DNA from: a virus
Lineage: Duplodnaviria; Caudoviricetes
Direction: 5' to 3' (one strand)
DNA length: 46,685 bases
IMG/VR virus record: IMGVR_UViG_3300033562_000494
Span: 1-46,685 of that record
The position numbers and the translations under genes were made by a program. Below, in pieces: positions 5,511-38,360 of this stretch; the first letter of the stretch is position 1; every line of letters begins with the position of its first letter. The notes under the pieces were generated by a model. It had not been told where the DNA came from. It was given only the letters and a program-made list of their open reading frames with translations, and did no database searches.

Positions 5511-6719
5511 ATGCCTAAGAAAAGAAAAGTGACCATTGCAGATACTACCGAGGAACTCCGAGACGATTACTGCGAGCTTTTTGACAGCATGGAGCGTCGT
5601 GTTATAGGCCACAGTTCTGCCTTGCACAAAGTTAAGCTCGCCTTGCTTATCAAAGAACATGTCATGCTCTCAGGCAAGCACGGACTAGCTAAGTCCTTTC
5701 TTGCTAGTGAAGTTTTTGCCTCCTTTCGAGGGGCATGTTTTTATAAGAAGCAACTATCTAAAAGCACCCAAGCAGAAGAACTTTTCGGCCCCCTAAATCT
5801 TAAAAAATACCAAGAAGAAGCTATTTGGGAGAACAACACAAAAGGGATGCTCCCTACTGCCCACTTCGTTTTCTTGGATGAAGTGTATCGCGCCGCCGAT
5901 ATGCTCCTGCCTACTTTGTTGGGTATATTGAACGAGCGTGAAGTCATTAACGGGGGAATTAAGTATATCTGCCCCTTACAGACCGCGATTGGAACCACCA
6001 ACTTTATCACCACCCAAAACGCCCAGCTAGATGCTTTCCATGACCGCTGGCTTTTTTGGGACGAAATGAGTCCCTTGGGGCGAACAGATAAGATCAGTAT
6101 GTTAATTCGCCAGACCGACCAGACGAGCGCACGAAAGCACACGATGGCGTATGCTGACTTGGTTATCTTGCAAGAGAAAGTTGCAGCTCTTCCCATAGAG
6201 GAGGAAACTTTAACCCTCCTCGTTGAAATGTCGGAGATGTTTGCGAGTAAAGACCCCGACACTTATATTTCAGACAGACGGCTTTGCCAGATTGTAAAAG
6301 GGATCAAAGCCATCGCCTTCTTAGAAGGAGCCTCGATTGCATCACCAGAGCATCTGGTAGTCTTTAGCAAAATGTTGCCTTACTCGACCACGCAGCGATC
6401 TAAACTAGATATGCTCGCAGGAACAACTTATTCGACTCTCGTAGGTTCTTATATTACAGAGAGAGAGGAGAACACTAAGCTTTCTGCCTTTGAACAAGAA
6501 GTGCTATCTATTTATAGGCGATGCGATAGCTCTCTTAGTAGCTCGGCAAAGCAACTTCTTATGGAAGTTTCGCAAGAACTTAGAGATGAGATTCTCAGCT
6601 TTAATGCCGTTACGCCTAATGGGATGAACAAGCGAGGCCACATGCTTAATCGCTTAATCGATATCTTAGCGATGTGTGGAGCAGTATCTCCTGCCGTTCC
6701 TGCGATTCCCGCCAGCTAA
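5511..6719 (+). CDS. MoxR/RavA-like AAA+ ATPase
   Basis: Walker A GKHGLAKS, EELFGP, Walker B FVFLDEVYRA, LLGILNER, AFHDRW arginine finger, ISDRR sensor 2; adjacent to a vWA gene. Confidence 0.9.
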   Translation: MPKKRKVTIADTTEELRDDYCELFDSMERRVIGHSSALHKVKLALLIKEHVMLSGKHGLAKSFLASEVFASFRGACFYKKQLSKSTQAEELFGPLNLKKYQEEAIWENNTKGMLPTAHFVFLDEVYRAADMLLPTLLGILNEREVINGGIKYICPLQTAIGTTNFITTQNAQLDAFHDRWLFWDEMSPLGRTDKISMLIRQTDQTSARKHTMAYADLVILQEKVAALPIEEETLTLLVEMSEMFASKDPDTYISDRRLCQIVKGIKAIAFLEGASIASPEHLVVFSKMLPYSTTQRSKLDMLAGTTYSTLVGSYITEREENTKLSAFEQEVLSIYRRCDSSLSSSAKQLLMEVSQELRDEILSFNAVTPNGMNKRGHMLNRLIDILAMCGAVSPAVPAIPAS

Positions 6720-8856: not shown

Positions 8857-9714
8857 ATGAAACTGAAAATTACAAAACGCCCATTCCAGCCTAGCGGAGC
8901 TTCCCCTAAGAAGCGTAATAAGCTAGTCATTCACCACGCCCGCAAACAAGGGGCGATTCCCGTTAAGCCCGAAAAGCGGCTTGCCTTAAACGACCCCCGT
9001 TCTGCTGATTATAATCCCGCCTTGAACAAGGCAGGGACTTCGACAGGGATTCATAACAGGCTTAATCCCCCTGACCCCGAATACATGAAAAAAATTCGGG
9101 CGATGCGAAAATTCTATTCCCCAAAGATGCCTTGCTTGCAATGCAACCTTTGTTCTTTCTCTTCGGCTTGCCCTCAGTTTAAGGCAGGGTATGAGTGCGC
9201 CTTCCTCCCTTTCTTAAACTCCCATAAGATAGACACCACGGACGACCTCCTTCACTACATGAAGGAACTTTTGTCGGCTAATATGCGCCGAGCGCATTTG
9301 TCTATGATGATGGAGACTTTGACAGGTGCGCCCCCAAGCCCCGAACTCAGCGAGTCTTTGAACTTGGCGTTCGCCCAGCTAACGAGCCTCCATGACAAAA
9401 TGAGCGAGTCCACCGAAAACATTTTGGAACTAGAAACCGATGACAACTCCATTATTGGAAAAATTTTTGGAAGTTTGGTAGCCCTTCAAGATGACACGAA
9501 GAACGCCGTAGAAGAAGCGGTTGAAGTAGAAGCCTCCGTTATATCTTCCGCAGAGCTAGACACGGAGAAGCAGAATCGAACTTACAACGGGATCGAACTC
9601 CCTCCTACTGATACTGATTTGCTTAACGACTTTCAAAAGAGTTTGCTTTCTTCCCAAGAGTCGGTTATCGTTTCGCTGGAAAAGAAAATACATGAGCAAC
9701 ACCCTACAACCTAG
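8857..9714 (+). CDS. Cys-rich hypothetical protein, possible terminase small subunit or regulator
   Basis: Basic N-terminus; CLQCNLCSFSSACPQFKAGYEC cysteine cluster; helical acidic C-terminus; lies upstream of terL. Function inferred from position only. Confidence 0.55.
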   Translation: MKLKITKRPFQPSGASPKKRNKLVIHHARKQGAIPVKPEKRLALNDPRSADYNPALNKAGTSTGIHNRLNPPDPEYMKKIRAMRKFYSPKMPCLQCNLCSFSSACPQFKAGYECAFLPFLNSHKIDTTDDLLHYMKELLSANMRRAHLSMMMETLTGAPPSPELSESLNLAFAQLTSLHDKMSESTENILELETDDNSIIGKIFGSLVALQDDTKNAVEEAVEVEASVISSAELDTEKQNRTYNGIELPPTDTDLLNDFQKSLLSSQESVIVSLEKKIHEQHPTT

Positions 9715-10280: not shown

Positions 10281-13200
10281 ATGAGTCAACTTGTCCAAAA
10301 ACCACAGGTATCGTCTAAACGAGTCCTAAATGCCTCCATTAACGACCCTGCCAAGCAGCTAGACCTAAAGAAGCTCGTTTTGAGCATTGTCACGCTTGCC
10401 CAAACGATTGCCCAAAAGAAGCTATACCCTCCCCAAGTCAAGGTATGCTATCGCATCGCCGAAGCGGTCTTAGAACATGAAGGCGAAGTTGTCTGTTCCC
10501 TCATCTCACGCCAGTTCGGAAAGTGTTTAGCCGAAGGAACCCAAGTGATGATGGCAGATACTACGGTGCGCTCCGTAGAAAAGATTAAAATGGGCGATCG
10601 CGTTATGGGAGATGATGGGACTCCGAGAACCGTGACTTCTCTAGCGTCTGGTTCTGAAAAGATGTATGAGATTCGCCCAAGGACTAAATATGGAGACAGT
10701 TATACCGTCAACGAGTCTCATATTTTGTCTCTCTTAGCAACAAAGCGAGATGCCCCAAGTAGAGTAGAGGACATCTGCGTAAAAGATGTCTTAAAAGACT
10801 CTCGTATAAAAACGAGTCACCTTTTAGGTTATCGAGGCACTTTTGATTTTCCAGAGAAAGAAGTCCCGATAGACCCTTACTGGCTCGGTTTATGGTTAGG
10901 AGACGGAAATAGCCGCTCCCCTGCTATCTATAATAAAGACCCCGAAGTTTTGCTTCGCATTTACAAATATGCAATTAAACTAGGTGGCGATGTTTCGGTT
11001 TATGAAGAACCTACCTGTTACGGTTACAACATTGTTGGAACTGACTTAAACCTTCGCCTAAAAGCTCTTCGGTTAAAGACGAACAAGCATATTCCACGAG
11101 CTTATTTTACCAATTCAAGAAAAGTCAGGCTCGAACTCTTAGCGGGTTTGATTGACTCAGACGGCTCACTGAACAAACATACTCAGACGACTTATGAGAT
11201 TTGCCAAACTTCAAAACGGTTAGCCGATGACATTGTTTTTTTGGCTAGGTCTTTAGGCTTTAGGGCATATCACTATCCCCGAAAAACGAAGTGTCAGACA
11301 GGCGTAGAAGGCGAAGCTTACCGCTGTTATATCTACGGAGACATTTCAACGATTCCCGTTGTCGTAAGACGCAAAAAAGCCAAGAAGCAAGCTGTTAGAG
11401 AAAACCCGTTAAGCTACGGAATTAAAATTGTCCCGAAAGGTGTAGGTAAGTACTACGGCTTCACCCTCTCGGGTAAAAACCGTCGCTTCATGTTAGGAGA
11501 CTTCACTGTTACGCATAACACCGAAGCACTCGGAGCTATCATCGCCGCCCTTTGTGTGATGCTCCCTTACTTGGCGAAGAAGTATCCCGACTCTTGGCAT
11601 CTAAACATCACCGATGATAACGGAGTCTATCGCGGCTTTCGTTTTGGATTTAAAGTGGGTATCTACGCCCCTCGGCGAGCGCAAGCGCAAATTATGTTTG
11701 ACCGTATCAAAACAATTTTTGCAACAGACTCAGCCAAGCAGGTGTTAAAAGAAATCAAGCTCACCCAAGAAGTCAGTAACGGTAACTCCGTTAAGCTCTC
11801 CAATAATTCTAGGATTCTTTGCGAGTCTGCATCCGAGCAGTCCAAGATTGAAGGAGCGACCCACGACTTACTTGTAGCAGAAGAAGCGCAGGATATTAGT
11901 GACTTGAAAATTCGTAAAAGTTTGCGCCCGATGATTGCGTCCACCAAAGGCTGTTTTGTTATGATCGGAACCGCCACAGGTAAAAAGTGTGAGTTTTATT
12001 CCGCTTTAAAAATTGCCCAAAGGTCGCAACTCGTGACAGGCAAGCAAAACTCTTTTGTTTATCCCTATTCCATTTGTCAAAATTACAACTCTCTCTACCG
12101 AGATTATATCGCCAAGGAAAAGATACGCTTAGGCGAAGACTCAGACGAGTTCTTGACTTCCTACGGCTGTTTGTTGCCCGACTCGCGGATTACTACATTG
12201 GACGGAAGTTCTAAAAAGTTAAGGGAGATCACGACGACGGACTTTGTGCTAGGACACACAGGTAATTTTAGACCTGTTACTTACGGGGCTAAGAAAAAGT
12301 GGAGACAACCTATCTATAAAATAGACCTTTTAGGGCATAGCGACTCCGTAGAACTTACTCACGACCATGAATCTCTGACAGGGCGTGGCTGGGTTCGTGC
12401 TGACGCGCTTAGAAAAGACGACATCCTTTTATACCCATGTTTTGAACTTTCAGAGAAGGTTAGCATTGTCGAAGTTCAATCCCGAAAGACTAAGGGAGGC
12501 TTTTGTCTTCCGTCAACGCTTCTGCTAAGTGCCGATTTGGGAGAACTCTTAGGCTGGTATATCGCAGAAGGATGTTCAAATCAGCAGAATAAATCGAATG
12601 TTAGCTTTTTTCTAAATAAAAAAGAGAAACAAGAAGCCCAGCGAATACGGCAACTCCTTCGTTCCTTTTTCGGAGTAGAAGCTCGCTTACGCTACCTCCC
12701 TACTTCGTTGTCAGTCACAGTAAATTGCGCCCATTTAAATCGCTGGCTAACCCTTCAATTTGGACATTTAGCAAAAAACAAAAAACTTCCTTCTTGGTTT
12801 TTAAATGCCCCAAAAGATTTTCTTCGGGCGTTTATTCGCGCTTACTTTGAAGGAGACGGTTGCTACTCTCGTTCTGGTAAAAAGCGTTGGGTAGCTTCGG
12901 CGGGGTCAGCGAGTCGAGCTTTGCTTGAGCAGATAGGGGTTATCCTTAGCGGGTTTAAGATAGCATCTTCTTTTCATGAAGGAGTTAACGCACGCTCTGT
13001 CATAAACGGACGACAAATAAAAGAGAGTCGGTTATACTGTCTTTATGTTTATGGGTTAGCCTCTCAAGATATTTTTGATAAGCATAATACGAAACGAGCT
13101 TCCAGCTATCTTTCAAAAGGTTATTTGTTTCGTCGCATAAAGAGAATAAGTCGCCGCCCCTATATCGGCGAGGTCTGTGACATCACAGTGGATAAGGATC

Positions 13201-13994
13201 AGAGCTTCTCAACAACAGCGTTTGTCGTGCATAATTGTATTTGGATCTTTGAACGAGGGATGTTTGTTACTCAAGAGCAGTTGTTTAATGTTTCCACCGC
13301 CTGTAAAGCAGGAGCCTTCTCCTACCTGTATCCTGACGGGCATCGAAACGCTTTGGGAGGTTACTCCTTAGTGGCTGGAATTGATTGGGGCAAATCGCAC
13401 GACAGCACCGTCGTTTGTCTTGCCGCTGTTAATTGGAATCATCCACAGGAGCGAGGAACCTATAACCGTCACGGCGTTCAAATAGAATACCAGACTTTCA
13501 AAAAGCACATCGTAGGCTTTATGGAGCTTATGGGCGACAACTACGAAGCTCAATTCTGGTCTATCGTGGAGTATCTTTCTAAGTTCCCGCAACTCGCTAA
13601 AATAGTCAACGATGCGAACAGTTGCGGGACACCCATGAATGATCGCTTAGATGCTTTTTACAAACCTCGCGGCGTTCTTGTGGAAGGCTTCACCTTCCAA
13701 GCAAAGTCAAAATCAGATTTGTATAAAAGCTATTACAGCGACCTTTGTGGGCATCGGGTGACTTTTCCGTGCGGAGAGGCATCGAGGCAGACAAAAGAAT
13801 ATCGCAAGTTTGTTGGTCAGATGTTGGACTTGACCAAGACCTATCGGAACGGGAATATGGTAGTTTGCCACCCACCAGAAAAAGATTGCCATGATGATTT
13901 TCCAGACGCTTCGGCTCTAGCTCTATGGGGATGCAACACTTCGGGCTACGCCAACAGCATTGACATGCACGATAATATCTTTTATAGGAGATAA
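10281..13994 (+). CDS. terL: Terminase large subunit containing two inteins (mature ~549 aa)
   Basis: Walker A SRQFGK|T (intein-split), GIYAPRRAQA, Walker B LLVAEEAQD, GTA coupling motif, nuclease motifs AGIDWGKSHDST and HDDFPDA. Confidence 0.95.
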   Translation: MSQLVQKPQVSSKRVLNASINDPAKQLDLKKLVLSIVTLAQTIAQKKLYPPQVKVCYRIAEAVLEHEGEVVCSLISRQFGKCLAEGTQVMMADTTVRSVEKIKMGDRVMGDDGTPRTVTSLASGSEKMYEIRPRTKYGDSYTVNESHILSLLATKRDAPSRVEDICVKDVLKDSRIKTSHLLGYRGTFDFPEKEVPIDPYWLGLWLGDGNSRSPAIYNKDPEVLLRIYKYAIKLGGDVSVYEEPTCYGYNIVGTDLNLRLKALRLKTNKHIPRAYFTNSRKVRLELLAGLIDSDGSLNKHTQTTYEICQTSKRLADDIVFLARSLGFRAYHYPRKTKCQTGVEGEAYRCYIYGDISTIPVVVRRKKAKKQAVRENPLSYGIKIVPKGVGKYYGFTLSGKNRRFMLGDFTVTHNTEALGAIIAALCVMLPYLAKKYPDSWHLNITDDNGVYRGFRFGFKVGIYAPRRAQAQIMFDRIKTIFATDSAKQVLKEIKLTQEVSNGNSVKLSNNSRILCESASEQSKIEGATHDLLVAEEAQDISDLKIRKSLRPMIASTKGCFVMIGTATGKKCEFYSALKIAQRSQLVTGKQNSFVYPYSICQNYNSLYRDYIAKEKIRLGEDSDEFLTSYGCLLPDSRITTLDGSSKKLREITTTDFVLGHTGNFRPVTYGAKKKWRQPIYKIDLLGHSDSVELTHDHESLTGRGWVRADALRKDDILLYPCFELSEKVSIVEVQSRKTKGGFCLPSTLLLSADLGELLGWYIAEGCSNQQNKSNVSFFLNKKEKQEAQRIRQLLRSFFGVEARLRYLPTSLSVTVNCAHLNRWLTLQFGHLAKNKKLPSWFLNAPKDFLRAFIRAYFEGDGCYSRSGKKRWVASAGSASRALLEQIGVILSGFKIASSFHEGVNARSVINGRQIKESRLYCLYVYGLASQDIFDKHNTKRASSYLSKGYLFRRIKRISRRPYIGEVCDITVDKDQSFSTTAFVVHNCIWIFERGMFVTQEQLFNVSTACKAGAFSYLYPDGHRNALGGYSLVAGIDWGKSHDSTVVCLAAVNWNHPQERGTYNRHGVQIEYQTFKKHIVGFMELMGDNYEAQFWSIVEYLSKFPQLAKIVNDANSCGTPMNDRLDAFYKPRGVLVEGFTFQAKSKSDLYKSYYSDLCGHRVTFPCGEASRQTKEYRKFVGQMLDLTKTYRNGNMVVCHPPEKDCHDDFPDASALALWGCNTSGYANSIDMHDNIFYRR
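10524..11519 (+). mobile_element. Intein 1 (332 aa) with LAGLIDADG homing endonuclease
   Basis: Starts CLAEGT, TVNESH block B, motifs WLGLWLGDG and LLAGLIDSDG, ends VTHN|T; inserted between Walker A Lys and Thr. Confidence 0.95.
12168..13235 (+). mobile_element. Intein 2 (356 aa) with LAGLIDADG homing endonuclease
   Basis: Starts CLLPDS, LTHDH block B, motifs LLGWYIAEG and FIRAYFEGDG, ends VVHN|C; inserted at SYG|CIW in the ATPase-nuclease hinge. Confidence 0.95.
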
Positions 13995-26100: not shown

Positions 26101-29100
26101 TCTTGGAGGGTGTTCTTGGCGTTTTTAAGATTCTTTTTGCTATAAGCCCTAAACTAGCTGCCGCAGGTATGATAGCCGCGCCGTCTTTGCCTATTCTTCT
26201 TGCCTCTATGGTGGGTGCAGGTCTTCGCACAGGTATTCGCGGTTCAGCGAGTCTTGCAGGTGACGCAGCCATCGCAGCTAGTGGGAGTGACGGCGACAAC
26301 AAACGAGGTAGCTGGTATAGTTGGAGTAGAGCAGTCGCCCGTCCTTTTGAAGTAGGAAAAGCGACTACCGCAGGGATTTTAGGTAAAGCTCCTGCCGATA
26401 TGCCCGGTAATTATGTTGCTAGATTGGGTGCGCTTGGGACAGATATGAAGGGTTGGTTTAACAACAAGTTTGTTCCAGGATGGCAAAATGTAATGCGTGC
26501 TTGGCAAGTTCCTGATGGCTTTATGGAGAGACTTCGTAACTTTAAGCAAACATCAGGAAACATCGTCTCTTTTAAAGATAGCGGCTTATCCCCCACGCTA
26601 GGCGAGCGTGTCAAGAGTGCTTCCACCGCCGCAGGACTTCCTAGTGGGGGTAGTGTAGCTAGTGCCGTCGGTGGATTTGTCGGAGGAGGGTTAGCTCGTT
26701 TAGGTGGTCTAGCCGCAGGAGTTGCTGTTGGTTTCGGAGAGCTTGCCCTAGCTATCGCCGCAGTCATGGGAGTTATGTGGTTACTCGAAAAAGCAATCAA
26801 AAAGATAGCTGGTTGGGTTCAAGGGAAAGAAGATATTAAAAATCTAGGTTCTAAAACGGCTAATCCTGTCTCGCTCAAAGCAGTAAGCCCAAATGAAGCG
26901 GTAAAAAAATATATGGATGCCAGAGCTAACGGCGAAATCCCCTACAATCCAGAGGAAGAAGACTTTGAAACTCAAAAATTTTTTGAGAAGAATCAGTTCT
27001 ATAAAAATTTTGCGGACTTAGCGGAAGCTAATAAAGTTTTAAATGCGGTTAGTAGCAAGACGGATAAAGATAAAGCAGAAGAATCTCTAAAAAAGGCTAC
27101 CAAGAACATCGAGCTTACTTTTGCTGAATATGAAAGCCTATCCATGTCAAATAAGGCGATTGTTACTAACCATATACAAAAGATAGCCGCACAGCTTCAT
27201 GGCGCGGAATTTGACCAACCAGTAGAGATTGACGGAGAGCAACTGGGTAAATCCGCGCTTAAAGCCTTAACCGAGACATATCAACGCTTTGGAACCTCTT
27301 TTGAAAAGCAATTTGCAGAGCAGTATTCTAAACGGAAACCTGTCCTCTTTGACCCCTTTAGAAAACCCAGTAGGCTGGATGCAAATATCCTCCCTAGCGA
27401 TTCCGAAGGTTCTACCCCTAGCGGGCGTAAGCTTCCTACGGTTAAGTATCAAGAGACAGTAGAATCCTTAACAGCAGCCTCCGAGTATTTTAAAGGAATT
27501 GATTCTGCGATGGTGGATCTATACAGTCGTATTGATATTATTACGGAAGCAGCTTCCAAAGCAGACCACACTAATATAAATGATCTAGTAGCTCATAATA
27601 TTAAGGTCTTAGATCAGACAGAGGAGATCGTCGAAACCTTTAAGACCAAGTTAGCAAATACGCTCACCAATATAGCGACCGAAATTAGCAAAGGTAATAA
27701 CGACCTTGTTAATCTAGGGGTTAACTCCTTAGACTTAAAGAATCCCGAAGAATTTTTGAGTAAAATGAAAGCAGCGGTTAAACTCAAACAGGCGGGGCAT
27801 GACGACGCTATTGGGCAATTTGAGGAAATTTGGGAGAGTGTTCTAACCGAGCTATTAGATAAAAATCTTTCGGCTCTTATAACACCTCTGAAGACTATGA
27901 CGGCTACCGTTAAAGGAAAACAGTCCGAGATTGAAGGCTTAGGTTTAAGCGAAAAGATCGCTTTATGGGTGAAAACAGTATCAAATGATATTAGAGGCGT
28001 TACGCTTTCTCTAAATAACTTAGGTGTTACTGTTCCGACGGGATTAGAGACTCAACTTGTCATCCCTCCTCTTCTCCCTCCTAAAGATAAAGGCACAGGC
28101 GCAGTTATCGCAGAAGGCGTAAAGACTAGATTAGGTAGAACGGGTGGCGCAGGTGGAACCCATAAAGAATTTGACCCTTGGGCATCCATTCTCAGTGTTA
28201 CAAGTAGTGAGCATCGCCAGACCGCCCTTGCAGGTATGCTCAAGAGGCAAGCAATGGGCGCAATTAAGCAAATTGGAGACGAAGGAGACTTGGGCAACAA
28301 GTTTATGACGGCTTTCTTTAGCACGAACGACTCTTCGATGATTTCTCAGCAAATCACTGTTTTAGAGCAGTTGAGAGACAAAGCGATTGAAGCAGGGCGC
28401 GGGCTTGATGTTACCTCTGAGGGGTTCACTAAAGCCGCGCATAATGCGGCAGCTTTCCAAGACAAAATATCTCAGTTGAAAGAAATAAGGATTCAGAATG
28501 ACCCGATGATGCAGTCGTTGAAGGAAATTAGCGAAGCTTTTAAAAACAGTTTAGGTTCCGCCATTTCTGACTTCATCATGGGAACTAAATCGGCGGGCGA
28601 AGCCATGCGAGCGTTTGCCTCAGAGTTCATTAGCGCGGCAGTTAGAATCTTAGTTAACAAAGCCGTGGAGTCTATCTTTGGCAGTATGTTTGGCGGCGCA
28701 GGAGGCGGTAAAGGTGGCGCAGGCGGCGCAGGGGGAGGAGGGGGAGGAGGGTCTATCTTTGACGGTATATTTAAGTTTTTCGGTTCTCTCTTTGGGGGAG
28801 CTACGGGCGGCAAAGTTAGTGCTTTTGGTATCGGTAGTAATCAGCCCCTTCACTTTGCCACAGGGGGCGGCGTTTATGGTGGTTCAGGCAAAGAAGACGA
28901 CATTCCCGCAATGCTCATGGGCGGCGAGTTTGTTGTCAGGAAGTCCGCCGTTGATAAATATGGCATAGACATGCTTGAACGCCTCAATAGCGGCAGACTT
29001 CACCAGATGGCTTTAGGCGGCAAAGCAGACTACCTTCCTAAGTATGCGATGGGTGGCAGAGTGGGTTATATGCCCCAATACGCCAACGGGGGAGCCGTAG

Positions 29101-29402: not shown

Positions 29403-30014
29403 ATGAAAGTAGCCGTAACCTTCGACCACAACACTTCGGGCGGGACTGTTGCTACCGCCAATTTGCTTTACTCCTTGGCGCGAGTTAAAATGACGGCTAC
29501 TGCGTTACCTTCGGGAGCGTCACTTTCTACCTACTACTACCCAAGGATGCTCTCAGATACCGCCTACACGCTCCACACGACCCAGCAAGGAGCTTATGAC
29601 GGGTCTAACCTTGTCTCCTTTGCAGATGACGGTAGTGGAATCGAGCTTTATACCACGGACATTTCCCAAACATTCTTTTATCGCCCATCTCAAAGCTCTG
29701 AAATGGAAGCTGAACCTAAAATCCGCAAAGTGCAGTTTGGGGACGGCTATGAACAGCGCAGCAAGGACGGAATCAATAACAACCCGCTCACTTTTCATTG
29801 CAACTTTATGAACATCTCTTCACGAAGAGCACATGATGTCAGCAACTTTTTGAAAGACCTAGAAGGGTATAAATGGTTTTGGTGGATGGCTCCTGAGCCT
29901 TATGATGACTCTCTTAAAAAATTTGTGGCAGGAAAACATAGTATTAGGTATGATGCCCCCAACATTAGAACAATCACAGTGGACTTTAAACAATCATTTG
30001 AACCAGGCGCATGA
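29403..30014 (+). CDS. Minor tail (distal tail) protein, lambda gpM-like, with extra N-terminal domain
   Basis: VQFGDGYEQRSKDGIN...FWW...FKQSFEP signature; ~83-aa N-terminal addition. Confidence 0.9.
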   Translation: MKVAVTFDHNTSGGTVATANLLYSLARVKMTATALPSGASLSTYYYPRMLSDTAYTLHTTQQGAYDGSNLVSFADDGSGIELYTTDISQTFFYRPSQSSEMEAEPKIRKVQFGDGYEQRSKDGINNNPLTFHCNFMNISSRRAHDVSNFLKDLEGYKWFWWMAPEPYDDSLKKFVAGKHSIRYDAPNIRTITVDFKQSFEPGA

Positions 30015-30850
30015 GTGTAGATACTGAAACAATTCAAAAGGAAATCGTCAAGCTATCTCCTGATACGCTTGTCGAACTTTATATTTTAGACGCTTCGGAT
30101 ATAGATGGCGATGTCGTCTATTTCCACGCAGGAACCAACAATAATTTGCAGCCAATTACTTTTAAGGGCGACATTTACCAACCGCTTCCCGTAGAAGTTG
30201 AAGGATTTGTCTTTAACGGTAAAGGTGAGATGCCCCGCCCCAAAGTTAAAGTTGCTAATTTGGATGGAGGCATTTCTGCTTTGTGTCTCGCTTATCAAGA
30301 CATGATTGGAACCAAGTTCATCAGGCGCAGAACCTTTGCCCGTTTCTTAGACGGTGGAGATAGAGAGAACGACTTGGCGCAACTTCCCGACGATGTTTTT
30401 TATGTCGAGCGGAAAGTTTCTGAAACAAAAGAAGTTGTCGAATTTGAGCTTTCTTCCCCTTTGGATGTTGACGGGGTGATGCTCCCTCGCCGCCAGTTTA
30501 TGACAAATCAGTGTGGCTGGAAGTATCGTTCCGCAGAATGTTCTTTTGCTGGTGACTACCTAGTAGCCGATGACACAGATGCTGCTATGACGGGAACTAA
30601 TCGCGGGGAATGGAACGAGTTAGCACAGTATAACACCAACGACTTCGTTTGGCGGTATGTTAGAGGGCGCAGATTTTACTATCTCGCTTTGATAGACAAC
30701 ATTGTAGGGGAGTTGATGCGCCCACCTAGAGCAGGTATCTGGAAACAGGAAGTTTGTTCCAAAAGACTCACAGGGTGCAAACTTCGCTACGGCCAAAATG
30801 CAGAATACCCTTTTGGTGGCTTTCCTGCCATCCGCAAAGCTAACGGTTAA
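30011..30850 (+). CDS. Minor tail protein, lambda gpL-like (predicted Fe-S)
   Basis: LVELY, FHAGTN, PRPK, RRRTFARFLD, EFELSSPLD; four Cys in CGWKYRSAEC and CSKRLTGC. Confidence 0.92.
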   Translation: MSVDTETIQKEIVKLSPDTLVELYILDASDIDGDVVYFHAGTNNNLQPITFKGDIYQPLPVEVEGFVFNGKGEMPRPKVKVANLDGGISALCLAYQDMIGTKFIRRRTFARFLDGGDRENDLAQLPDDVFYVERKVSETKEVVEFELSSPLDVDGVMLPRRQFMTNQCGWKYRSAECSFAGDYLVADDTDAAMTGTNRGEWNELAQYNTNDFVWRYVRGRRFYYLALIDNIVGELMRPPRAGIWKQEVCSKRLTGCKLRYGQNAEYPFGGFPAIRKANG

Positions 30851-30853
30851 ACT

Positions 30854-31585
30854 ATGAACACCGATTATCAATCTTTGGTTAAATGCTATGCCCTTGCAGA
30901 AGCTCCTAGAGAATGTTGCGGCTATATCTTAGCACAAGGCGACCGCTTTGAAGTAAGACCTTGCCATAATGTTTCTCAATTTCCAGAGGCATACTTTCAG
31001 ATGGATGCCGCAGAGTTTTTAGGGATTAAAACGCACTACAAGATTCATGCTGTCTATCACAGTCACCCCACGACTTCGGTAGAATTTTCAGAAGCCGATA
31101 AAAGAGTTGCCGAGGAAACCCTTATTCCTATCTTGGTCTATTCGATTCCTGATGACGCTTTTGCTTACTACACCCCCACAGGGCATTGTGCGCCCGTAGA
31201 AGGGCGGCTTTTTGTGCCTCTCGTGTTTGACTGCGTAAACCTTGTTAGAGACTATTTGAAGCAAGAAACAGGTGTCAATATCGGAGACTTACGCCGAGAT
31301 TTATCAACCATTCAGTTAGGCACAGACCAGATGAAAGCCTACTGTGAAACCAACGGGTTTGAGATCGTCACAGGGCATCCTTTGAAGAAGTATGACATTG
31401 TAGTAATGCAGCTAGGCAGAGTCGAGCTTCCCAATCATGTCGCTGTCTATATTGGCGGGGGACAAATAATTCACCAAGTCATTCACAGAGCCTCTACGAC
31501 CGATGTTTATGGCGGCTATTGGGAAAAACATACCGTTGCAATTTTAAGAAATAAGGTAATATCAGGGAAGGAGACAAAACAATGA
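30854..31585 (+). CDS. Tail assembly protein, lambda gpK-like (JAB/MPN + NlpC/P60)
   Basis: PRECCG...HSHP...SEAD JAB motif; FDCVNLVRDY...NHVAVY...IIH NlpC/P60 motif. Confidence 0.92.
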   Translation: MNTDYQSLVKCYALAEAPRECCGYILAQGDRFEVRPCHNVSQFPEAYFQMDAAEFLGIKTHYKIHAVYHSHPTTSVEFSEADKRVAEETLIPILVYSIPDDAFAYYTPTGHCAPVEGRLFVPLVFDCVNLVRDYLKQETGVNIGDLRRDLSTIQLGTDQMKAYCETNGFEIVTGHPLKKYDIVVMQLGRVELPNHVAVYIGGGQIIHQVIHRASTTDVYGGYWEKHTVAILRNKVISGKETKQ

Positions 31586-32256
31586 GAGTAGATATTCGCT
31601 TGCATGGAAAATTGGGGAAAGAAATAGGAGAACACTGGCAACTTTATGTCAACTCCGTGGGAGAGGCTATGCGTGGCATAGAAGCCAATAGCAAGAAGTT
31701 GTTCCAATACTTTTACGAGTGCGAAAAAGATGGAGTTGAATACCGCGTGCTAATTAACGGGCGTGACCATACGGACGACTCCGATCTAGTTGTTAGCCGC
31801 AAAACTTTGAGAGAAATAGACATTGTTCCTGTTCCCGCAGGAGCGGGCGGCGGTAACGGTGGAATGTTTAAAATGATTATCGGGCTTTTTCTCGTCATTG
31901 TAGCTTCCGTAGTCACTTTTGGCGTAGCCGCTCCAGGTGCCATCGTAGGTTTTGCCTCCTTCTTTGCCACAATGGGAACTGTTTTTGCTATGAAAGCTGT
32001 TTTCATGTTTGGTGCAGCTTTGCTGCTTGGTGGACTTTTTGAGCTTGTGTCAGGCTCACCAAAAAGTTCAAACGGAGGTAACAACGATATGGGTAGTGGT
32101 GAATCGGAGAAAGCCGAGCTTGCGCCTTCTTATCTTTTCGGAGGAGCCGTGAATACCGCCAATCAGGGCAACCCTATTCCTATTGGGTATGGGCGGCTCC
32201 GTATTGGTAGCCAAGTTATCGCAGCAGGAGTTCGTTCAACGGCCATCCCTGTTTAA
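31582..32256 (+). CDS. Tail assembly protein, lambda gpI-like (ubiquitin-like N-terminal domain)
   Basis: IRLHGKLG...IDIVPVPAGAGG, a hydrophobic segment, then SYLF...NTANQGNPIPIGYGRLRIGSQVI. Confidence 0.92.
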   Translation: MRVDIRLHGKLGKEIGEHWQLYVNSVGEAMRGIEANSKKLFQYFYECEKDGVEYRVLINGRDHTDDSDLVVSRKTLREIDIVPVPAGAGGGNGGMFKMIIGLFLVIVASVVTFGVAAPGAIVGFASFFATMGTVFAMKAVFMFGAALLLGGLFELVSGSPKSSNGGNNDMGSGESEKAELAPSYLFGGAVNTANQGNPIPIGYGRLRIGSQVIAAGVRSTAIPV

Positions 32257-32271
32257 TTTAGACCTAAATTA
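32254..32271. promoter_or_regulatory. 18-bp palindromic motif forming the whole I-J junction
   Basis: TAATTTAGACCTAAATTA: the first three nt are the I stop codon and the last nt is the A of the J ATG. Confidence 0.9.
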
Positions 32272-35200
32272 TGGAAGAGTATAACGAAAGTCTCGCACCA
32301 CAGCTAAACGACTTAATAGGGGCGGGCGGTGGTTGTTTCCACGAAAACACGCCAGTCTATACGCTCAAAGGCTACCGCCCTATCTGCCAGCTACAAGCAG
32401 GTGACGCCATTTACAGCTTCAACGAGTTTGGCAAAATAGAAGAGGATGAAATTGAGCAAGTTCTTGTCCACCCTAACCAAGCTTTAGGTTTGTTCAGATT
32501 TTGGGGCGGTAAAGTCTTAGTCACACCTATCCACTGGTTTTTGTCTGACCGCAACTCCTTCAAAGAAGCCCAAGCCTTTGATGTTCACCGCTGCGTAATG
32601 GATGTCGAAGGTGGCTTACGCTCGTTCCACTCATACACGCCTAATGTTGAAGAAGGTGTAACCGTCTATAACCTCATCGTAAAGAAGAACCATACCTACA
32701 TCGCAGGTGGTTTGAGAGTCCATAACGGCGGTGGAGGAGGTGGAGGAGGTAAAGGCTGTTTCAGTTTTGATACTCTCATTGAAACCCCAATGGGAGATGT
32801 GCCTATTTCTTCTTTGAAGAAAGGAGATAAAGTTTTTAGCTTCGATGAAAAAGAGAACAAACATATAGACTTCGTGGATGAAGTTTTAGTCCACGAAAAC
32901 GAAGTTTTGGGGCAGTTTGAGTTTAACGGTGGCAAAGTCCTCGTGACTCCTATCCACTGGATGCTATCGCACAACAACTCCTTTACCGAAGCCCAAGGAT
33001 TTAGCTCTAAACTTTCTGTCGTTAATGCGAAAGGGTATTTACAAGCCTTTCAGCACTATACCCTTATAGAAGGTCGGCATACTGTCTATAACCTTTTAAT
33101 TAAGAAAAACCACACCTTCATTGCGGGTGGGCTAAGAGTCCACAACGGAGGAGGAGGCGGCGGGGGCGGTAAAAGCGGTGGCAATGATGGCGGTATGTCT
33201 TCGGCTAGGGAAGTCCACGAAGACCCCGAAAGTTTGCGGTCAAGGTCTTACGCACGAGTAATTGATGCTTTGTGCGAAGGGGAGATTGAGGGGCTTGTAG
33301 ATACTTACGGCACAGTCCAGTCAGGAACAAATGTCGCTAAAGGTGTCTATGTTGACGGCGTTCCTCTGATGGGGTCAGACGGAGTTTGGAACTACGCAGA
33401 TGTGCTTATTGATTACCGCACAGGAACCCAAGATCAATCCGCTTTTGCAGGAGTTGTAGGAACTGAATCCACCACTAATTTAGGCTCTCGTTTAAGGACT
33501 CCCGCAGGAGGAGCCGTCCCACTCTACTATGCGTGTATCAACCCCGAAGTAGATGAAGTGGAGTTTGGAATTAGAGTCGCTTCGTTAGTTCGCCAAGACA
33601 AAACGACGGGCGATTTATTTGGGTCAGAAGTTTCTTGGCAAGTTGACTATAGGATTAACCAACAAGTTTGGCTTCCTGCGTTTACTTCTACCGTGTCGGG
33701 CAAGACTTCTTCGGCCTATATGCACTCCCAAACCTTTGCCATCCCTAAAGGAGGCATTATTGGCGGTATCAGCTTGATAGAGTTTAGGCTGACGCGTATT
33801 ACGCCTGACTCAACTTCAAGCTCTTTGCAGAATGAAACTTATTGGGATTATGTAACCGAGCGGATAAACGCAAAGTTTAAATATCCCAATACCGCAATGG
33901 TTGGTATTCAAATCAACGCCGAGCAATTCGCTTCTATTCCATCGAGGGCGTTTGACTGCAAGCTTTTGAAAATTAAAGTTCCTACCAATTATGACCCTAG
34001 CTCTCGTGCTTATACAGGCATTTGGGACGGCTCTTTTAAAGTAGTGTGGTCAGACAACCCCGCTTGGTGTTTTTATGACCTCGTAACTAACTCCCGCTAC
34101 GGGCTAGGCGATTATTTTCCCGCAGACACTTTAGACAAGTGGACGCTCTACACAATAGGGCAATACTGCGACGAATTAGTTCCTAGCGGCTACGGTGGAA
34201 ACTTTGAACCCCGATTCACTTGTAACCTTTATCTTCAAACGAGAGAGGAAGCTTACAAAGTTGCAACGGATATGGCTTCCATTTTTAGGGCGATGCTTTA
34301 TTGGGGAAACAATACCTTAATTCCATCCCAAGATCGCCCAAAACAGCCCCTTGTCCACTTCCACGCCGCCAATGTTAAAGACGGACGGTTTAGCTACACA
34401 GGGTCAGCCAAACGCGCTAGGCACACTTGCGCCCTCGTTGCGTGGAACAACCCCATCACAGGCTACGCTCGTGAAATCGAATATGTAGAAGATGTTGACG
34501 GTATTAACCGTTTTGGGGTGCGAGAGGTCGAAGTAGCCGCTTTCGGTTGCACCTCTAGGGGACAAGCACACCGTTTAGGAAAGTGGATTCTATACACTGA
34601 ACGAAAAGAGTCTGACTTGATTACCTTCCGTGCTGGTATGGAAGGGATGTTTTTGAGACCTGGTGACTTGTTCAAGGTTAGTGACTCTTTCCGTGCGGGA
34701 GTGATTAACGGCGGGCGTATAATGGGTATTGCCAGTGATCGCCTAAGTATCACTTTAGACCGCCCTTTGCCTTTAGTGGCAGGAGCCACTTACACTCTTC
34801 ATGTTCAATGCCCACAGGCGTTTGTCCCTTATGATGTCCCTTTGACCGATTCAACTCAAGCGGAACTCCGTAGGACAGCACAGATCGTCACGCGAACAGT
34901 TTTGACTCCTTCCCAAGAGGGAACTTACATCCTAGCCTTTGCGGAAGCGTTGCCTTCTAATGCCGATGTCGGAATGATATGGACAGTAGAAAGCAGCGAA
35001 ATTTCAGCACAGTTGTTTAGAACGCTCACGGTAGAAGAAATTGCCGCTCACGAGTTTGAAGTCACAGGGATGCAATATGACCTCAATAAATTTGCGGAAA
35101 TTGAGCAAAACATCGTATTTGACCCTTCCCCTATCTCGGTGTTGCCAAATCAACTCCTAGCCCCTGAGCCGCCCACTAATTTAGCCGTTGTTCAACGCAT

Positions 35201-38200
35201 TGAAACCTCTTTATTCGCCCCTACAAAGCTTTTGTTAGATATTACATGGGACAGGGTAGATAATCCGCTCGTTTCGGGCTATCTGGTTTATGTCAAACGA
35301 ACAGGAGATAACCGCCGAGTCTTGGGAGAGTATCAGGACAACTCGGCTATTTATGAAGTCACGCAGCCCGGTGAATACACGGTGGAAGTTCAAGCCGTCA
35401 CCCGTTTTGGTAAGCGGTCTAAAAGCATTTATTTGACGACTACCGTAGCCAACCAAAATCCCGCCCTCGCCCCTTCGGTGACTCACTTAGAAATCTACGG
35501 GCAAGGGAATGATACAGAGTTTTTAACAAGAGATGTCCGTTTTACTTGGATGCTTTATTCTCCCTCTTTTGGAGAAGACTTGACAGTGAACCCCCTTTCA
35601 ATGGGAAAGAAAGACCCCTACTTTTCGCACTTCATTATCCTTGTTCGAGACTCTACTAGCGGGGTTGTAGTTAGAACTGTCGCTTGCGATGTTTCGGAAT
35701 ACACTTATTCTTTCACAGACAATTTTTCAGACCCTTCGGGGCCTCGTAGGTCTTTCATCTTTGAAGTGTATGCCGTAGATATTTTTGGGGCTTGGTTAAA
35801 CCCTGCCACGATTACCGTTGCCAACCCACCCCCTGCTTTGCCGCAGTTTGTGGAGCTTTCTTCCTTTGCAGGAAACATCGTTTTTAAATGCGCCCAAACT
35901 CCTAACGTGGACTTTAAAGGTTACTTGGTTTGGATTAGTTCTTCTAGCGGTTTTGACACGCAGCTTCTTCTTCCCGCTTATGAGGGAGCCAACAACCCCG
36001 CTTTAATCCCGATAACGGACGAAGCCGTTTACTACATCCGCTTTGCCGAGTTTGATGTTTTTGGAAAAACCGATCTCATTATTTCGGATGAAGTGAGCCT
36101 GTATGCTTCTTTTCGCTTAAACCCCTTCCCACCCGCTTACCCCAAGAATTTAGCTCTAAATTCTTTGTTGGTGTCCCTTGTTGGCGTGCCTCCCTACGCC
36201 GCCATTACCGCCACATGGGATGCGAACACAGAATCCGATTTATCCGTTTATGAAGTTTCCGTTTCTGACAACGGGGGCATTTCTTGGATAAACACCGTAG
36301 TTCAAACGCCCACTTATACCTTTGAAGGAACCCCAGGACTCACTTATCGAGTTCAAGTGAGAGCGACCAACACTTCGGGCGTAACTAGCCCTTACTGTCC
36401 CTATTTGGACATCATAGCGACTCCCGATGCCGAATCCCCTGATAGCATAACGGGATTGACTTCGGCGACTTCTTTCAATCAAATCTTCTTGAGTTGGACA
36501 AATCCTACCGCCAATGATTTTCGGTCAGTCGAAGTTTGGGAAGCCTCCGCTGACGACTTTACGCAAGCCGTCTTAAAAGCAGACACTTCTAGCGGCTACT
36601 TTACGATGCCCGCCCTCACGGACTCGACTCACTATTTTTGGCTCATCGCAAAGGACTTTTCTGCCAACGAGTCTGCGCCCGTAGCGAGCGGGGCTATCGT
36701 GACGGGCAAAATCGAGAATAAGGATTTGAGCGACTTTGCAATTAACGCTTCCAAGATGTTCACGAGAGCGATTGTCTTGGACGGAGACAGCTGGACAAAT
36801 CGCTCGCCCGACCCTTCTTCTATTTCATGGAATGACCACTCGGTTTATTATGCGGGAGTCAAATATGACATCCCTGCTGCTTCGACTTCGGATAAATATA
36901 TCTGGTGGAGCTTATCTGACGGGCTTTATCACACGGATAACGCTTATCCTGTTTTGGGCGATGACGAGTTCATGGTAGCTACGAATGTTGACGGCTATTA
37001 TGACTTGGCATGGAACGCTCTCGCTAATGCTGTTATCGGAAGTGCCTACATTCAAGACGCGGCTATCAACAATGCAAAAATTGCCGACCTTGCCGTAGAT
37101 GCTGCCAAGATTGCAGACTTGGCGGTGACGACGGCTAAGATTGATGACTTAGCTGTAACGGATGCCAAAGTAGAAAGTCTTTCTGCTTCCAAGATTGTGA
37201 TTGCGGGAACAACTACGCTCGCTGATTGGAGACACGGAGCCGACTTAACCAAGATAGACGGCGGGACGATTGCCGCCAATACGATTGCCGCCAACTCTGC
37301 CACTTTCGGTTTGAGGGGCTTGGATGTTTCAGGGCTACAATTTGAGTGCCAGAAAGACAGTAATGGGATACCCACAGACACTTTAGGTTGGACAGCAGGT
37401 AGCGTGTCCTATGTAGATAATGACGGAAATCCTGTTGTCAAAAATATCCTTTCGGGAGAAACGACAAGTGCCTCTCTTGTCTTCGTTTATTATGACAACA
37501 CTTTACCTGACGGGAGTGCTTTGGGAGTTACCCCTGACCCCGCCGTAGCTTATGGGGCAGACAAAATCGTTCTCGCCACTTTTGCGGGAGGATTGAACCT
37601 TAATGCCACTTATGGGCGCACAAAGATTGACGGTTCTCAAATCATTGCAGGCTCCGTTACTTCTGATTTGATTAGGACAAACACTTTGAACGCAGAAGTG
37701 ATTCAAGGCGGCACGCTGGACATCAACAAAATAAACGCCGACATCGCTTTGACGAAGGATTTGATTATCGGAGACGCTTTAGGGGACGGAGCTATTCGTT
37801 CCAGAAATTACGACCCGTTAGCCGACCCATTAGCTCGCCAAGGCTTCATTATTGACGGTAATGGTAATGCCGAGTTCTATAACATGAAAGTGCGCCAAGA
37901 TATTGTCGGCGGCACGATTAAGATAGGACTTGCGCCAGAAGGTAACTTAGATGGCGACCCCAATACAGGGCTAGGCGTAGATGCTTACGGCAACTTCTGG
38001 ATAGGAAAAGCTGACTATGCCACCGCCCCTTTTAGAATTAGCAAAACGGGCGAGCTTTATTTCGAGCTAGTTAGCCCGTTGATTCCGCAGTCGGCTAGAG
38101 AAGATTTGATTAAAGGCGTTCAATGTCAAATTAGTTTCGGGATCACTCGTCCCCAACTAAATGCAGTTTATTATCTTATCGTTAATTCGTTGTTTAAGTT

Positions 38201-38360
38201 TAAAATAACTCACTTATACGCTTCGGGAGGAGACGGACATTATTGGAGTAACGGAGGAAGTATAGGCACGCCGTATCTTGAAGGAGGAGCCTTCTACTTA
38301 GTCGCAACCGCACGGTCATCGAATCCTTTATATGGGAGAGTGGGATACATCCGCTGGTAA
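32271..38360 (+). CDS. Central tail fibre/tip attachment protein, lambda gpJ-like, with two N-terminal Hint domains
   Basis: IDALCEGEIEGL, YPNTA, VPTNYDP, WDGSFK...SDNPAW, FGCTSRGQAHRLGKW, multiple FN3-like domains, AKIADLAV repeats. Confidence 0.95.
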   Translation: MEEYNESLAPQLNDLIGAGGGCFHENTPVYTLKGYRPICQLQAGDAIYSFNEFGKIEEDEIEQVLVHPNQALGLFRFWGGKVLVTPIHWFLSDRNSFKEAQAFDVHRCVMDVEGGLRSFHSYTPNVEEGVTVYNLIVKKNHTYIAGGLRVHNGGGGGGGGKGCFSFDTLIETPMGDVPISSLKKGDKVFSFDEKENKHIDFVDEVLVHENEVLGQFEFNGGKVLVTPIHWMLSHNNSFTEAQGFSSKLSVVNAKGYLQAFQHYTLIEGRHTVYNLLIKKNHTFIAGGLRVHNGGGGGGGGKSGGNDGGMSSAREVHEDPESLRSRSYARVIDALCEGEIEGLVDTYGTVQSGTNVAKGVYVDGVPLMGSDGVWNYADVLIDYRTGTQDQSAFAGVVGTESTTNLGSRLRTPAGGAVPLYYACINPEVDEVEFGIRVASLVRQDKTTGDLFGSEVSWQVDYRINQQVWLPAFTSTVSGKTSSAYMHSQTFAIPKGGIIGGISLIEFRLTRITPDSTSSSLQNETYWDYVTERINAKFKYPNTAMVGIQINAEQFASIPSRAFDCKLLKIKVPTNYDPSSRAYTGIWDGSFKVVWSDNPAWCFYDLVTNSRYGLGDYFPADTLDKWTLYTIGQYCDELVPSGYGGNFEPRFTCNLYLQTREEAYKVATDMASIFRAMLYWGNNTLIPSQDRPKQPLVHFHAANVKDGRFSYTGSAKRARHTCALVAWNNPITGYAREIEYVEDVDGINRFGVREVEVAAFGCTSRGQAHRLGKWILYTERKESDLITFRAGMEGMFLRPGDLFKVSDSFRAGVINGGRIMGIASDRLSITLDRPLPLVAGATYTLHVQCPQAFVPYDVPLTDSTQAELRRTAQIVTRTVLTPSQEGTYILAFAEALPSNADVGMIWTVESSEISAQLFRTLTVEEIAAHEFEVTGMQYDLNKFAEIEQNIVFDPSPISVLPNQLLAPEPPTNLAVVQRIETSLFAPTKLLLDITWDRVDNPLVSGYLVYVKRTGDNRRVLGEYQDNSAIYEVTQPGEYTVEVQAVTRFGKRSKSIYLTTTVANQNPALAPSVTHLEIYGQGNDTEFLTRDVRFTWMLYSPSFGEDLTVNPLSMGKKDPYFSHFIILVRDSTSGVVVRTVACDVSEYTYSFTDNFSDPSGPRRSFIFEVYAVDIFGAWLNPATITVANPPPALPQFVELSSFAGNIVFKCAQTPNVDFKGYLVWISSSSGFDTQLLLPAYEGANNPALIPITDEAVYYIRFAEFDVFGKTDLIISDEVSLYASFRLNPFPPAYPKNLALNSLLVSLVGVPPYAAITATWDANTESDLSVYEVSVSDNGGISWINTVVQTPTYTFEGTPGLTYRVQVRATNTSGVTSPYCPYLDIIATPDAESPDSITGLTSATSFNQIFLSWTNPTANDFRSVEVWEASADDFTQAVLKADTSSGYFTMPALTDSTHYFWLIAKDFSANESAPVASGAIVTGKIENKDLSDFAINASKMFTRAIVLDGDSWTNRSPDPSSISWNDHSVYYAGVKYDIPAASTSDKYIWWSLSDGLYHTDNAYPVLGDDEFMVATNVDGYYDLAWNALANAVIGSAYIQDAAINNAKIADLAVDAAKIADLAVTTAKIDDLAVTDAKVESLSASKIVIAGTTTLADWRHGADLTKIDGGTIAANTIAANSATFGLRGLDVSGLQFECQKDSNGIPTDTLGWTAGSVSYVDNDGNPVVKNILSGETTSASLVFVYYDNTLPDGSALGVTPDPAVAYGADKIVLATFAGGLNLNATYGRTKIDGSQIIAGSVTSDLIRTNTLNAEVIQGGTLDINKINADIALTKDLIIGDALGDGAIRSRNYDPLADPLARQGFIIDGNGNAEFYNMKVRQDIVGGTIKIGLAPEGNLDGDPNTGLGVDAYGNFWIGKADYATAPFRISKTGELYFELVSPLIPQSAREDLIKGVQCQISFGITRPQLNAVYYLIVNSLFKFKITHLYASGGDGHYWSNGGSIGTPYLEGGAFYLVATARSSNPLYGRVGYIRW
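32334..32726 (+). other. Hint domain 1 (131 aa, no endonuclease)
   Basis: CFHENT start, VTPIH block B, VYNLIVKKNHTYIAGGLRVHN end; +1 residue is Gly. Confidence 0.92.
32757..33146 (+). other. Hint domain 2 (130 aa, no endonuclease)
   Basis: CFSFDT start, VTPIH block B, VYNLLIKKNHTFIAGGLRVHN end; +1 residue is Gly. Confidence 0.92.

Follow-up and report, generated by a model that had tools for sequence, protein, structure and literature searches.

Why the gene for a phage tail fiber protein should begin with two predicted self-processing domains is the question raised by a 46,685-nucleotide stretch of viral DNA (positions 1 to 46,685 of IMG/VR virus record IMGVR_UViG_3300033562_000494, Caudoviricetes), which in its whole length is called the window below. 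One of its open reading frames encodes the precursor of a lambda-type central tail fiber protein, J, in which two Hint domains stand in tandem between a short leader and the body of the protein. The best explanation, to which a probability of about 0.45 can be given, is that each Hint domain is a mobile-type, endonuclease-free passenger that excises itself from the protein and ligates its flanks through lysine, leaving J nearly normal. Mobility of the Hint element is likely; that it is a passenger rather than an essential part of J is probable from sequence comparisons, because some close relatives of the carriers lack the Hint and because the Hint sits in unrelated virion genes; and the tandem itself is probably incidental.

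Anatomy of the J precursor

The architecture proposed by a first-pass annotation made from the DNA letters alone (a 21-residue leader, a Hint domain, Gly8-Lys-Gly, a second Hint domain, Gly8-Lys-Ser and then J) is borne out by the reading frame detailed in Table 1. Hint1 and Hint2 alike have Cys1, the block B motif T-x-x-H in the form T-P-I-H, the terminal His-Asn and a Gly at +1, as annotated, and since they are only 130-131 residues long there is no room in either for an endonuclease. Linker 2 equals the native Gly-run/Lys start of J and is followed by the hub of a lambda-type J, which the NCBIfam model lambda_TipJ matches from residue 308 with a score below its full-length cut-off; the body of the protein matches the Pfam families PF24801 and PF13550. 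The hub and fibronectin type III domains, together with a position downstream of M, L, K and I homologs as in a lambda-type tail operon, identify the protein as a lambda-type gpJ.

The two Hint domains are diverged paralogs, as had been described, with a repeat unit of 423 nucleotides, 52-53% identity (52% over 130 residues), a nonsynonymous divergence (dN) of 0.41 and a saturated synonymous divergence (dS). The PT-HINT family PF07591 matches Hint1 with 30.5 bits, above its cut-off of 27.7, and Hint2 with 27.0 bits, just under it. Modeling with AlphaFold2 gave Hint1 a mean predicted local distance difference test (pLDDT) score of 97.8, and in a model of J residues 1-334 both Hint domains fold and the leader and linkers are disordered (pLDDT < 50). 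The guanine plus cytosine content is 41% in Hint2 and 47% in Hint1, J and the window.

An assembly artifact was ruled out by recovery of the same tandem in a separate IMG/VR contig (L001, with both Hint domains and 100% identity over the Hint1 query) and in several run assemblies. The whole stretch lies in one contig each in four run assemblies, these runs being possibly the window's own source; two further runs, not flagged as possible sources, cover it, one as two abutting pieces (X5) and one as a single piece spanning 31600-33123 (X6). No deletion joint was seen in the run contigs, though contigs drop rare variants. The runs carrying the tandem are labeled microbial mat metagenome.

Distribution of the Hint element in J proteins

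A query consisting of residues 14-340 yielded 406 matches among 5,664 candidates, and the best 120 of the 406 were examined. All 120 are J proteins with a Hint at the same place, in one copy in 116 and in two copies in four. Cys1, His46, His67, Asn113, His120, His130 and Asn131 are present in each of these 124 Hint domains, which are 129-131 residues long; the parser demanded Cys1 and His-Asn, none of the 120 proteins failed to parse, and decayed copies would be under-sampled because of this demand and because the set was ranked by likeness to the query. The residue at -1 is Gly in 122 of the 124, the residue at +1 is Ala in 65 and Gly in 59, and +2 is always Gly. Downstream flanks are of two types, with a Gly run and Lys straight after the Hint, as in the window, or with a short spacer and a second IxG[AS]G(n)K motif. 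The median dN/dS ratio is 0.14 for the Hint versus 0.18 for J (405 non-independent pairs), in agreement with the earlier proposal that the Hint is maintained by selection.

A profile search of 1.84 billion representatives gave 5,445 matches at E <= 1e-10, with 48 J proteins among 133 new top matches. A single Hint is present in the J protein of the cultured Leptolyngbya sp. PCC 7375 (EKU98057.1); the Hint family had no match in a GenBank phage collection, the ESM Atlas returned generic Hint clusters only, and a metagenome scan returned one identical copy and otherwise J proteins at 35-49% identity (that of locus L291 matching from residue 22).

A query with J sequence only returned three two-Hint proteins followed by 117 J proteins, none of which has a Hint and 114 of which (mostly one clade) start with IxG[AS]G(n)K. 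Among solved structures, the J chains of lambda and F2 pyocin and those of two further phages carry a Gly/Lys motif at this place, and T1-like and F-pyocin J proteins, like lambda J, have a native Lys. Because Hint-less J proteins share the motif, Gly-Lys is J's own N-terminus and the Hint interrupts a native Gly run; the suggestion that Gly8-Lys was purpose-built in the window J does not hold.

Presence of the Hint is patchy among close relatives. Eighty viral loci chosen by J sequence alone around the single-Hint protein P0011 comprised 48 with the Hint, 26 without it and six that were cut. After reassignment of two cut loci by inspection and removal of cut or identical rows, a tree of 64 close J proteins (41 with the Hint, 23 without) required at least 11 changes of presence, a count that by itself gives no direction of gain or loss. 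For the most part the Hint has diverged along with J (Mantel rho 0.43, n = 53; Spearman 0.60). This speaks against homing, and with these changes its simplest interpretation is repeated loss; a homing-like recent spread was not seen, near-identical Hint domains with diverged J proteins being found in only 2 of 595 pairs.

In the Hint tree, Hint1 and Hint2 of the window are sisters (support 100/96), as are the two Hint domains of P0005; those of P0003 and P0004 are not sisters, and the P0351 pair share 77% identity, against no more than 37% with any other Hint. The window J is sister to P0003 and P0004. All three, at 57% identity, have two Hint domains, and their clade may therefore have inherited an ancient tandem whose copies were later homogenized. 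Except for two-Hint forms, no J protein above 57% identity to the window J was found, whether single-Hint or Hint-less. On these relationships, tandems arose independently at least three times (in the window clade, P0005 and P0351). The Gly-codon runs on both sides of the Hint would permit recombination to delete the element or to duplicate it in tandem, which makes it probable that the second copy is incidental.

The same Hint family in other proteins

Hint domains of this family are also found directly after the ubiquitin-like domain of gpI (P0391-P0401, P0404, P0405, P0408, P0409, P0427, P0442, P0445; loci L292-L318); in one gpI clade they are present in 27 of 28 loci, the 28th being cut. 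This layout of ubiquitin-like domain, Hint and Gly4-Lys arm is the phage counterpart of the layout of BUBL proteins. Frequently the large protein encoded 3' of a Hint-bearing gpI also contains an internal Hint, whose flank varies and which is followed by a Lys after 7-12 residues, and one locus (L090) has two gpI-like reading frames.

DNA-ejection or internal virion proteins (P0465, P0476, L089, P0322) have Hint domains at Gly-rich sites, that of the gp7-like ejection protein P0465 (PHROG 598) being N-terminal, after a four-residue start. Glycine-rich gp38-like adhesins (P0474, P0478, L097, L103) have an internal Hint followed by Gly(n)-Lys; since both flanks are large, ligation is probably needed there. 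A search for Hint-less relatives of the gp38-like host brought back just two loci. Other tail proteins and bacterial proteins carry the Hint too. In twelve proteins with a signal-peptide-like start (P0239-P0243, P0245, P0253, P0256, P0270, P0272, P0327, P0384), three to five tandem Hint domains are joined by Lys-Gly(n) linkers, with Lys at +1 throughout and with Tim44-like domains after the Hint domains in those scanned. A tree of 80 domains (131 columns, with support from the Shimodaira-Hasegawa-like approximate likelihood ratio test only and many forks open) intermingles those of J, gpI, ejection, gp38-like and bacterial proteins.

Several of these Hint domains lie at processing sites, two of them known ones. 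An N-terminal part of the F-pyocin gpI homolog is removed before tip attachment (preprint 10.64898/2026.02.24.707460). In P22 gp7, OpdA removes 20 residues, after which the protein starts with Lys-Gly-Gly-Lys-Gly, and function without the leader is approximately 60% (PMC8402733).

Lysine and the proposed route of excision

The nearest folds to the window Hint are a bacterial intein-like (BIL) domain of C. thermocellum (2LWY; template modeling (TM) score 0.91) and BIL2 of BUBL1 (6Y75/6TMM; TM score 0.89), which is reported to form a Lys isopeptide (PMC8616854). The 2LWY fold, the PF07591 match and the Gly or Ala at +1 agree with the original assignment to BIL- or pretoxin-type Hint domains that lack a +1 nucleophile, and the self-cleavage and amine ligation through Gly linkers that it proposed are the likely chemistry.

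Among the best-scoring matches outside J, 203 Hint domains were reduced to 87 by removal of the KG-array type and then to 61 distinct flanks. Of these 61, 27 have Lys at +1 (control mean 3.1, maximum 10) and 49 have it within +1 to +6 (control mean 15.4, maximum 27; 2,000 draws); in seven of the remaining 12 the +1 residue is Cys, Ser or Thr. This family-wide signal bears out the emphasis that the first-pass annotation had placed on Lys. In gpI, each of the 27 complete loci with a Hint carries an additional Gly arm that places Lys at +5, and three or more Gly directly followed by Lys occur in none of 26 distinct Hint-less gpI flanks (10 loci were unparsed and one cut Hint locus was set aside). 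Lys lies within 20 residues in 64 of 65 dereplicated J Hint domains. Where a second IxG stands downstream, the upstream leader motif is kept in 30 of 31 dereplicated J Hint domains (background frequency of I/V/L 0.20), as expected if the leader stays attached; under linear splicing or cleavage alone the upstream motif would be redundant.

In the preferred explanation, each copy, lying within the Gly-run/Lys motif with which J natively begins, would remove itself post-translationally. Cys1 would form a thioester with the preceding Gly, and the epsilon-amine of a Lys on the flexible Gly arm would attack it to form an isopeptide branch as in BUBL1 BIL2, filling the role of the missing +1 Cys, Ser or Thr; Lys161 is the candidate amine acceptor for Hint1, given the enrichment of Lys across the family. 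Cyclization of the terminal Asn would then free the Hint, and trimming of the leader at IxG[AS] by the peptidase gpK would leave J with an oligo-Gly/Lys start near the Hint-less form plus a small branch. Should ligation fail, cleavage alone would yield almost the same J, so the site would tolerate the element.

Several considerations weigh against this explanation. Ligation through Lys is predicted from sequence and by analogy, and reviews state that cleavage products dominate for type-A BIL domains (PMC4031507, PMC7664689). The Lys counts ignore phylogeny and come from best-scoring matches only. Lys is found within eight residues in 11 of the 26 Hint-less gpI flanks; the nearest Lys is 11-20 residues off in 24 of the 65 J Hint domains; the P0005 and P0407 linkers and the L089 flank have no Lys nearby; and the conservation of Lys in J needs no Hint, since Lys is native to J. 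The upstream and downstream motifs match each other within a protein (variable position 10/31 versus 2.7 expected), so duplication or conversion, and not selection, may keep the upstream one. The +1 Gly/Ala and +2 Gly that J Hint domains nearly always have suit alpha-amine ligation equally well. Only half of the BIL2 zinc site is present, H48 aligning with H46 and H125 with N113 (numbering derived by hand from a printed alignment). Finally, a neutral passenger is not the obvious explanation for a Hint that mostly co-diverges with J and that, in one gpI clade, none of the 27 complete loci lacks.

A somewhat unlikely alternative keeps the passenger and replaces its chemistry with that of type-A BIL domains, for which a thioester, Asn cyclization and attack by the freed alpha-amine have been proposed, with cleavage dominating (PMC4031507): the alpha-amine of Gly would splice linearly, restoring the Hint-less N-terminus, or cleavage only would leave J with its Gly-run/Lys start, Lys being a bystander in either case. 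This is consistent with the Gly/Ala at +1 and Gly at +2 in all 124 J Hint domains, with 2LWY as the top structural match, with the resemblance of Hint-less alleles to a leader joined straight to the Gly run and Lys, and with the three Lys-less cases named above. It leaves unexplained, however, why unrelated hosts have a Lys at +1 or in the first six residues, the Gly-Lys arm added in gpI, and the redundant upstream motif.

Comparison with known Hint systems

With the type-A BIL domain (2LWY, PF07591), the J Hint domains share a fold of approximately 130 residues, Cys1, T-x-x-H in block B, the terminal His-Asn, and the lack of both an endonuclease and a +1 Cys, Ser or Thr. Type-A BIL domains reside in hypervariable regions of non-conserved bacterial proteins (PMC7765530), whereas J Hint domains occupy one constant place, a conserved Gly/Lys motif in proteins of the phage virion, and the invariant His46 of the latter is Arg in 2LWY. 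With BUBL1 BIL2 of Tetrahymena they share the fold, a His (His48) equivalent to His46, and an available downstream Lys, and the gpI relatives share even the order of ubiquitin-like domain, Hint and Lys; in contrast, the N-extein of the window J is a disordered leader that is not ubiquitin-like, and the second zinc ligand of BIL2 is replaced by Asn113. A Lys that could serve as acceptor in the C-extein is present and enriched family-wide, but it is native to J and has exceptions. The J Hint would work like a type-A BIL domain and possibly like BUBL1 BIL2, departing from one defining feature of the former and two of the latter.

Class 1 mini-inteins and LAGLIDADG inteins share the Hint fold, Cys1, His-Asn and precise presence or absence among host alleles, but they sit in enzyme active sites, whereas J Hint domains sit in a flexible terminal linker without a +1 nucleophile or homing endonuclease, and show no recent spread faster than the host gene of the kind expected of homing inteins. 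The Hedgehog autoprocessing domain shares the fold and the use of a nucleophile that is not a +1 side chain to resolve the thioester; J Hint domains differ in keeping the terminal His-Asn and lacking the sterol region. Equation of His46 with the general base Asp46 of Hedgehog was not supported, as the 1.8-bit gain for D46H fits column 44 (1.75) and not column 46 (3.79).

Excerpts of two phage papers place inteins in terminase or ribonucleotide reductase only (PMC3556154, PMC5259590), and a literature search, mostly excluding subscription journals, found no description of Hint domains in phage tail proteins among the entries listed. The placement of BIL-type Hint domains at Gly/Lys motifs of virion proteins is widespread and apparently undescribed.

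Relation to processing by gpK

The window shares with lambda-type gpK/gpI/gpJ maturation its gene order, the intact JAB and NlpC/P60 residues of gpK, and a ubiquitin-like gpI, the protein whose N-terminal part is removed in F-pyocin. The JAB domain of gpK has been proposed to cut gpI after the ubiquitin-like Gly (PMC1779556), and the gpI ubiquitin-like domain ends in a sequence similar to the J leader motif; gpK is accordingly proposed as a candidate trimmer of both gpI and J leaders, the J step being suggested by sequence resemblance. The excerpts of that paper and of the F-pyocin preprint mention neither a Hint nor cleavage of a J leader. Co-variation between the J leader and gpI at the Ala/Ser position was not significant (6/8, p = 0.11). 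The idea that the Hint stands in for a dead gpK was rejected, gpK being intact with or without a Hint and its JAB and NlpC residues invariant among 26 sequences.

It is very improbable that the Hint domains do not process themselves in vivo and either stay on J or are removed by gpK only. Self-processing activity is a prediction, and the second downstream IxG of many relatives could let gpK remove the whole block, but the splice-junction residues are all invariant and the window type has no downstream IxG motif.

Passenger or maturation device

The first-pass annotation took the Hint pair for a domesticated maturation device. That J needs such a device is not supported, given close relatives without a Hint, unrelated virion hosts and recurrent tandems, and of the other roles that had been offered, neither cross-linking with a second tail protein nor a functional Gly8-Lys-Gly peptide is indicated by anything found. 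Domestication, a quite unlikely alternative, would mean that the phage benefits from the Hint: it could time or sense tip assembly, substitute for gpK or for a protease of the host, acylate J's Lys, or cross-link J to another tail protein. The family is old and mostly co-diverges with J; it persists despite frequent loss with no endonuclease or evident drive; and its constant presence in one gpI clade, the two-Hint state shared by three J proteins at 57% identity, and recurrence at processing sites (gpI, P22 gp7) could all reflect a benefit. However, the repeated switches of presence among close J proteins (at least 11 in 64) and the intact gpK with or without a Hint count against domestication, any element that needs to excise would show purifying selection equally, and no partner or co-varying gene was seen.

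Chemistry and benefit to the phage are partly independent questions. Because the family has long persisted without an endonuclease and despite frequent loss, a conditional benefit to the phage is possible. Tentatively, and with rather more doubt than attaches to the Lys-ligating passenger itself, these Hint domains might be grouped as "lysine inteins", a large undescribed class in which the Lys epsilon-amine replaces the +1 Cys, Ser or Thr in isopeptide splicing and which hops between Gly/Lys motifs of J, gpI, ejection proteins, adhesins and secreted bacterial proteins, settling at maturation sites.

Neighboring genes and other features of the window

Features of the window are listed in Table 1. 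The window gpI is Hint-less, and its ubiquitin-like domain ends in P-A-G-A-G-G-G, the site at which other phages carry the same Hint family. The terminase large subunit has two LAGLIDADG-bearing intein regions, canonical inteins in the same genome, with candidate ends at His-Asn-Thr near residue 413 and His-Asn-Cys near residue 985. The tape measure protein has a Gly-Ala-Gly3-Lys motif in a glycine-rich region, 228 residues before its C-terminus; lambda gpH is cut in the corresponding glycine-rich region by an unknown enzyme (PMC12617516), and the gpK-type motif is present in none of three weak homologs of the window protein. A near-palindromic 16-bp motif (28 strand matches with at most two mismatches, 0.08 expected) is mostly intergenic, with one copy directly 5' of the J start codon, and is possibly an operator, a phage promoter or a translation signal.

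Table 1. Features of the J locus and of the rest of the window
Feature	Position	Strand	Details
MoxR-type AAA ATPase gene	5511-6719		upstream of terminase
Queuine tRNA-ribosyltransferase-like gene	8857-9714		PHROG 887; upstream of terminase
Terminase large subunit	10281-13994		two intein regions
Tape measure protein motif	28689-28718		Gly-Ala-Gly3-Lys
gpM-like minor tail protein	29403-30014	+
gpL-like minor tail protein	30011-30850	+
gpK-like JAB + NlpC/P60 peptidase	30854-31585	+	catalytic residues intact
gpI-like tail assembly protein	31582-32256	+	PHROG 32
End of gpI ubiquitin-like domain	31834-31854		P-A-G-A-G-G-G
J precursor (lambda-type central tail fiber/tip attachment protein)	32271-38360	+	2029 residues
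Leader (N-extein)	32271-32333	+	21 residues; ends IGAGGG (IxG[AS]G(n) motif)
Hint1	32334-32726	+	J residues 22-152 (C22-N152); Cys1, His46, T64-x-x-H67, block F Asn113 and His120, terminal His-Asn
Linker 1	32727-32756	+	Gly8-Lys-Gly; Lys161 at 32751-32753
Hint2	32757-33146	+	J residues 163-292 (C163-N292); catalytic set as in Hint1
Linker 2	33147-33176	+	Gly8-Lys-Ser; Lys301 at 33171-33173
16-bp motif (16 sites)	1552, 3240, 5491, 6722, 10167, 14972, 15864, 20744, 23107, 23836, 25312, 29383, 32255, 36147, 39150, 42023

Conclusions

What makes this locus interesting is less the tandem than the Hint family, its Lys signal and a possible connection with processing of the gpK type. Regardless of chemistry, the same element follows the ubiquitin-like domain of gpI, stands at the beginning of J and occupies the N-terminus of a gp7-like protein, and this shared placement makes the target of gpK in lambda-type tail assembly, with the J leader as a substrate, a testable matter. 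If the Hint domains form the broad Lys-splicing class outlined above, their positions would map a hidden gpK (JAB) step at the N-terminus of J in lambda-like tails, and J in this phage would acquire from its tandem, with no use of ATP, an oligo-Gly tag with two branches. If the Lys route is true, isopeptide splicing, known from one ciliate protein, would be widespread in phages and would offer a compact, ATP-free tool for making branched proteins. The family may also be an example of an intein-like element that persists and moves without a homing endonuclease.

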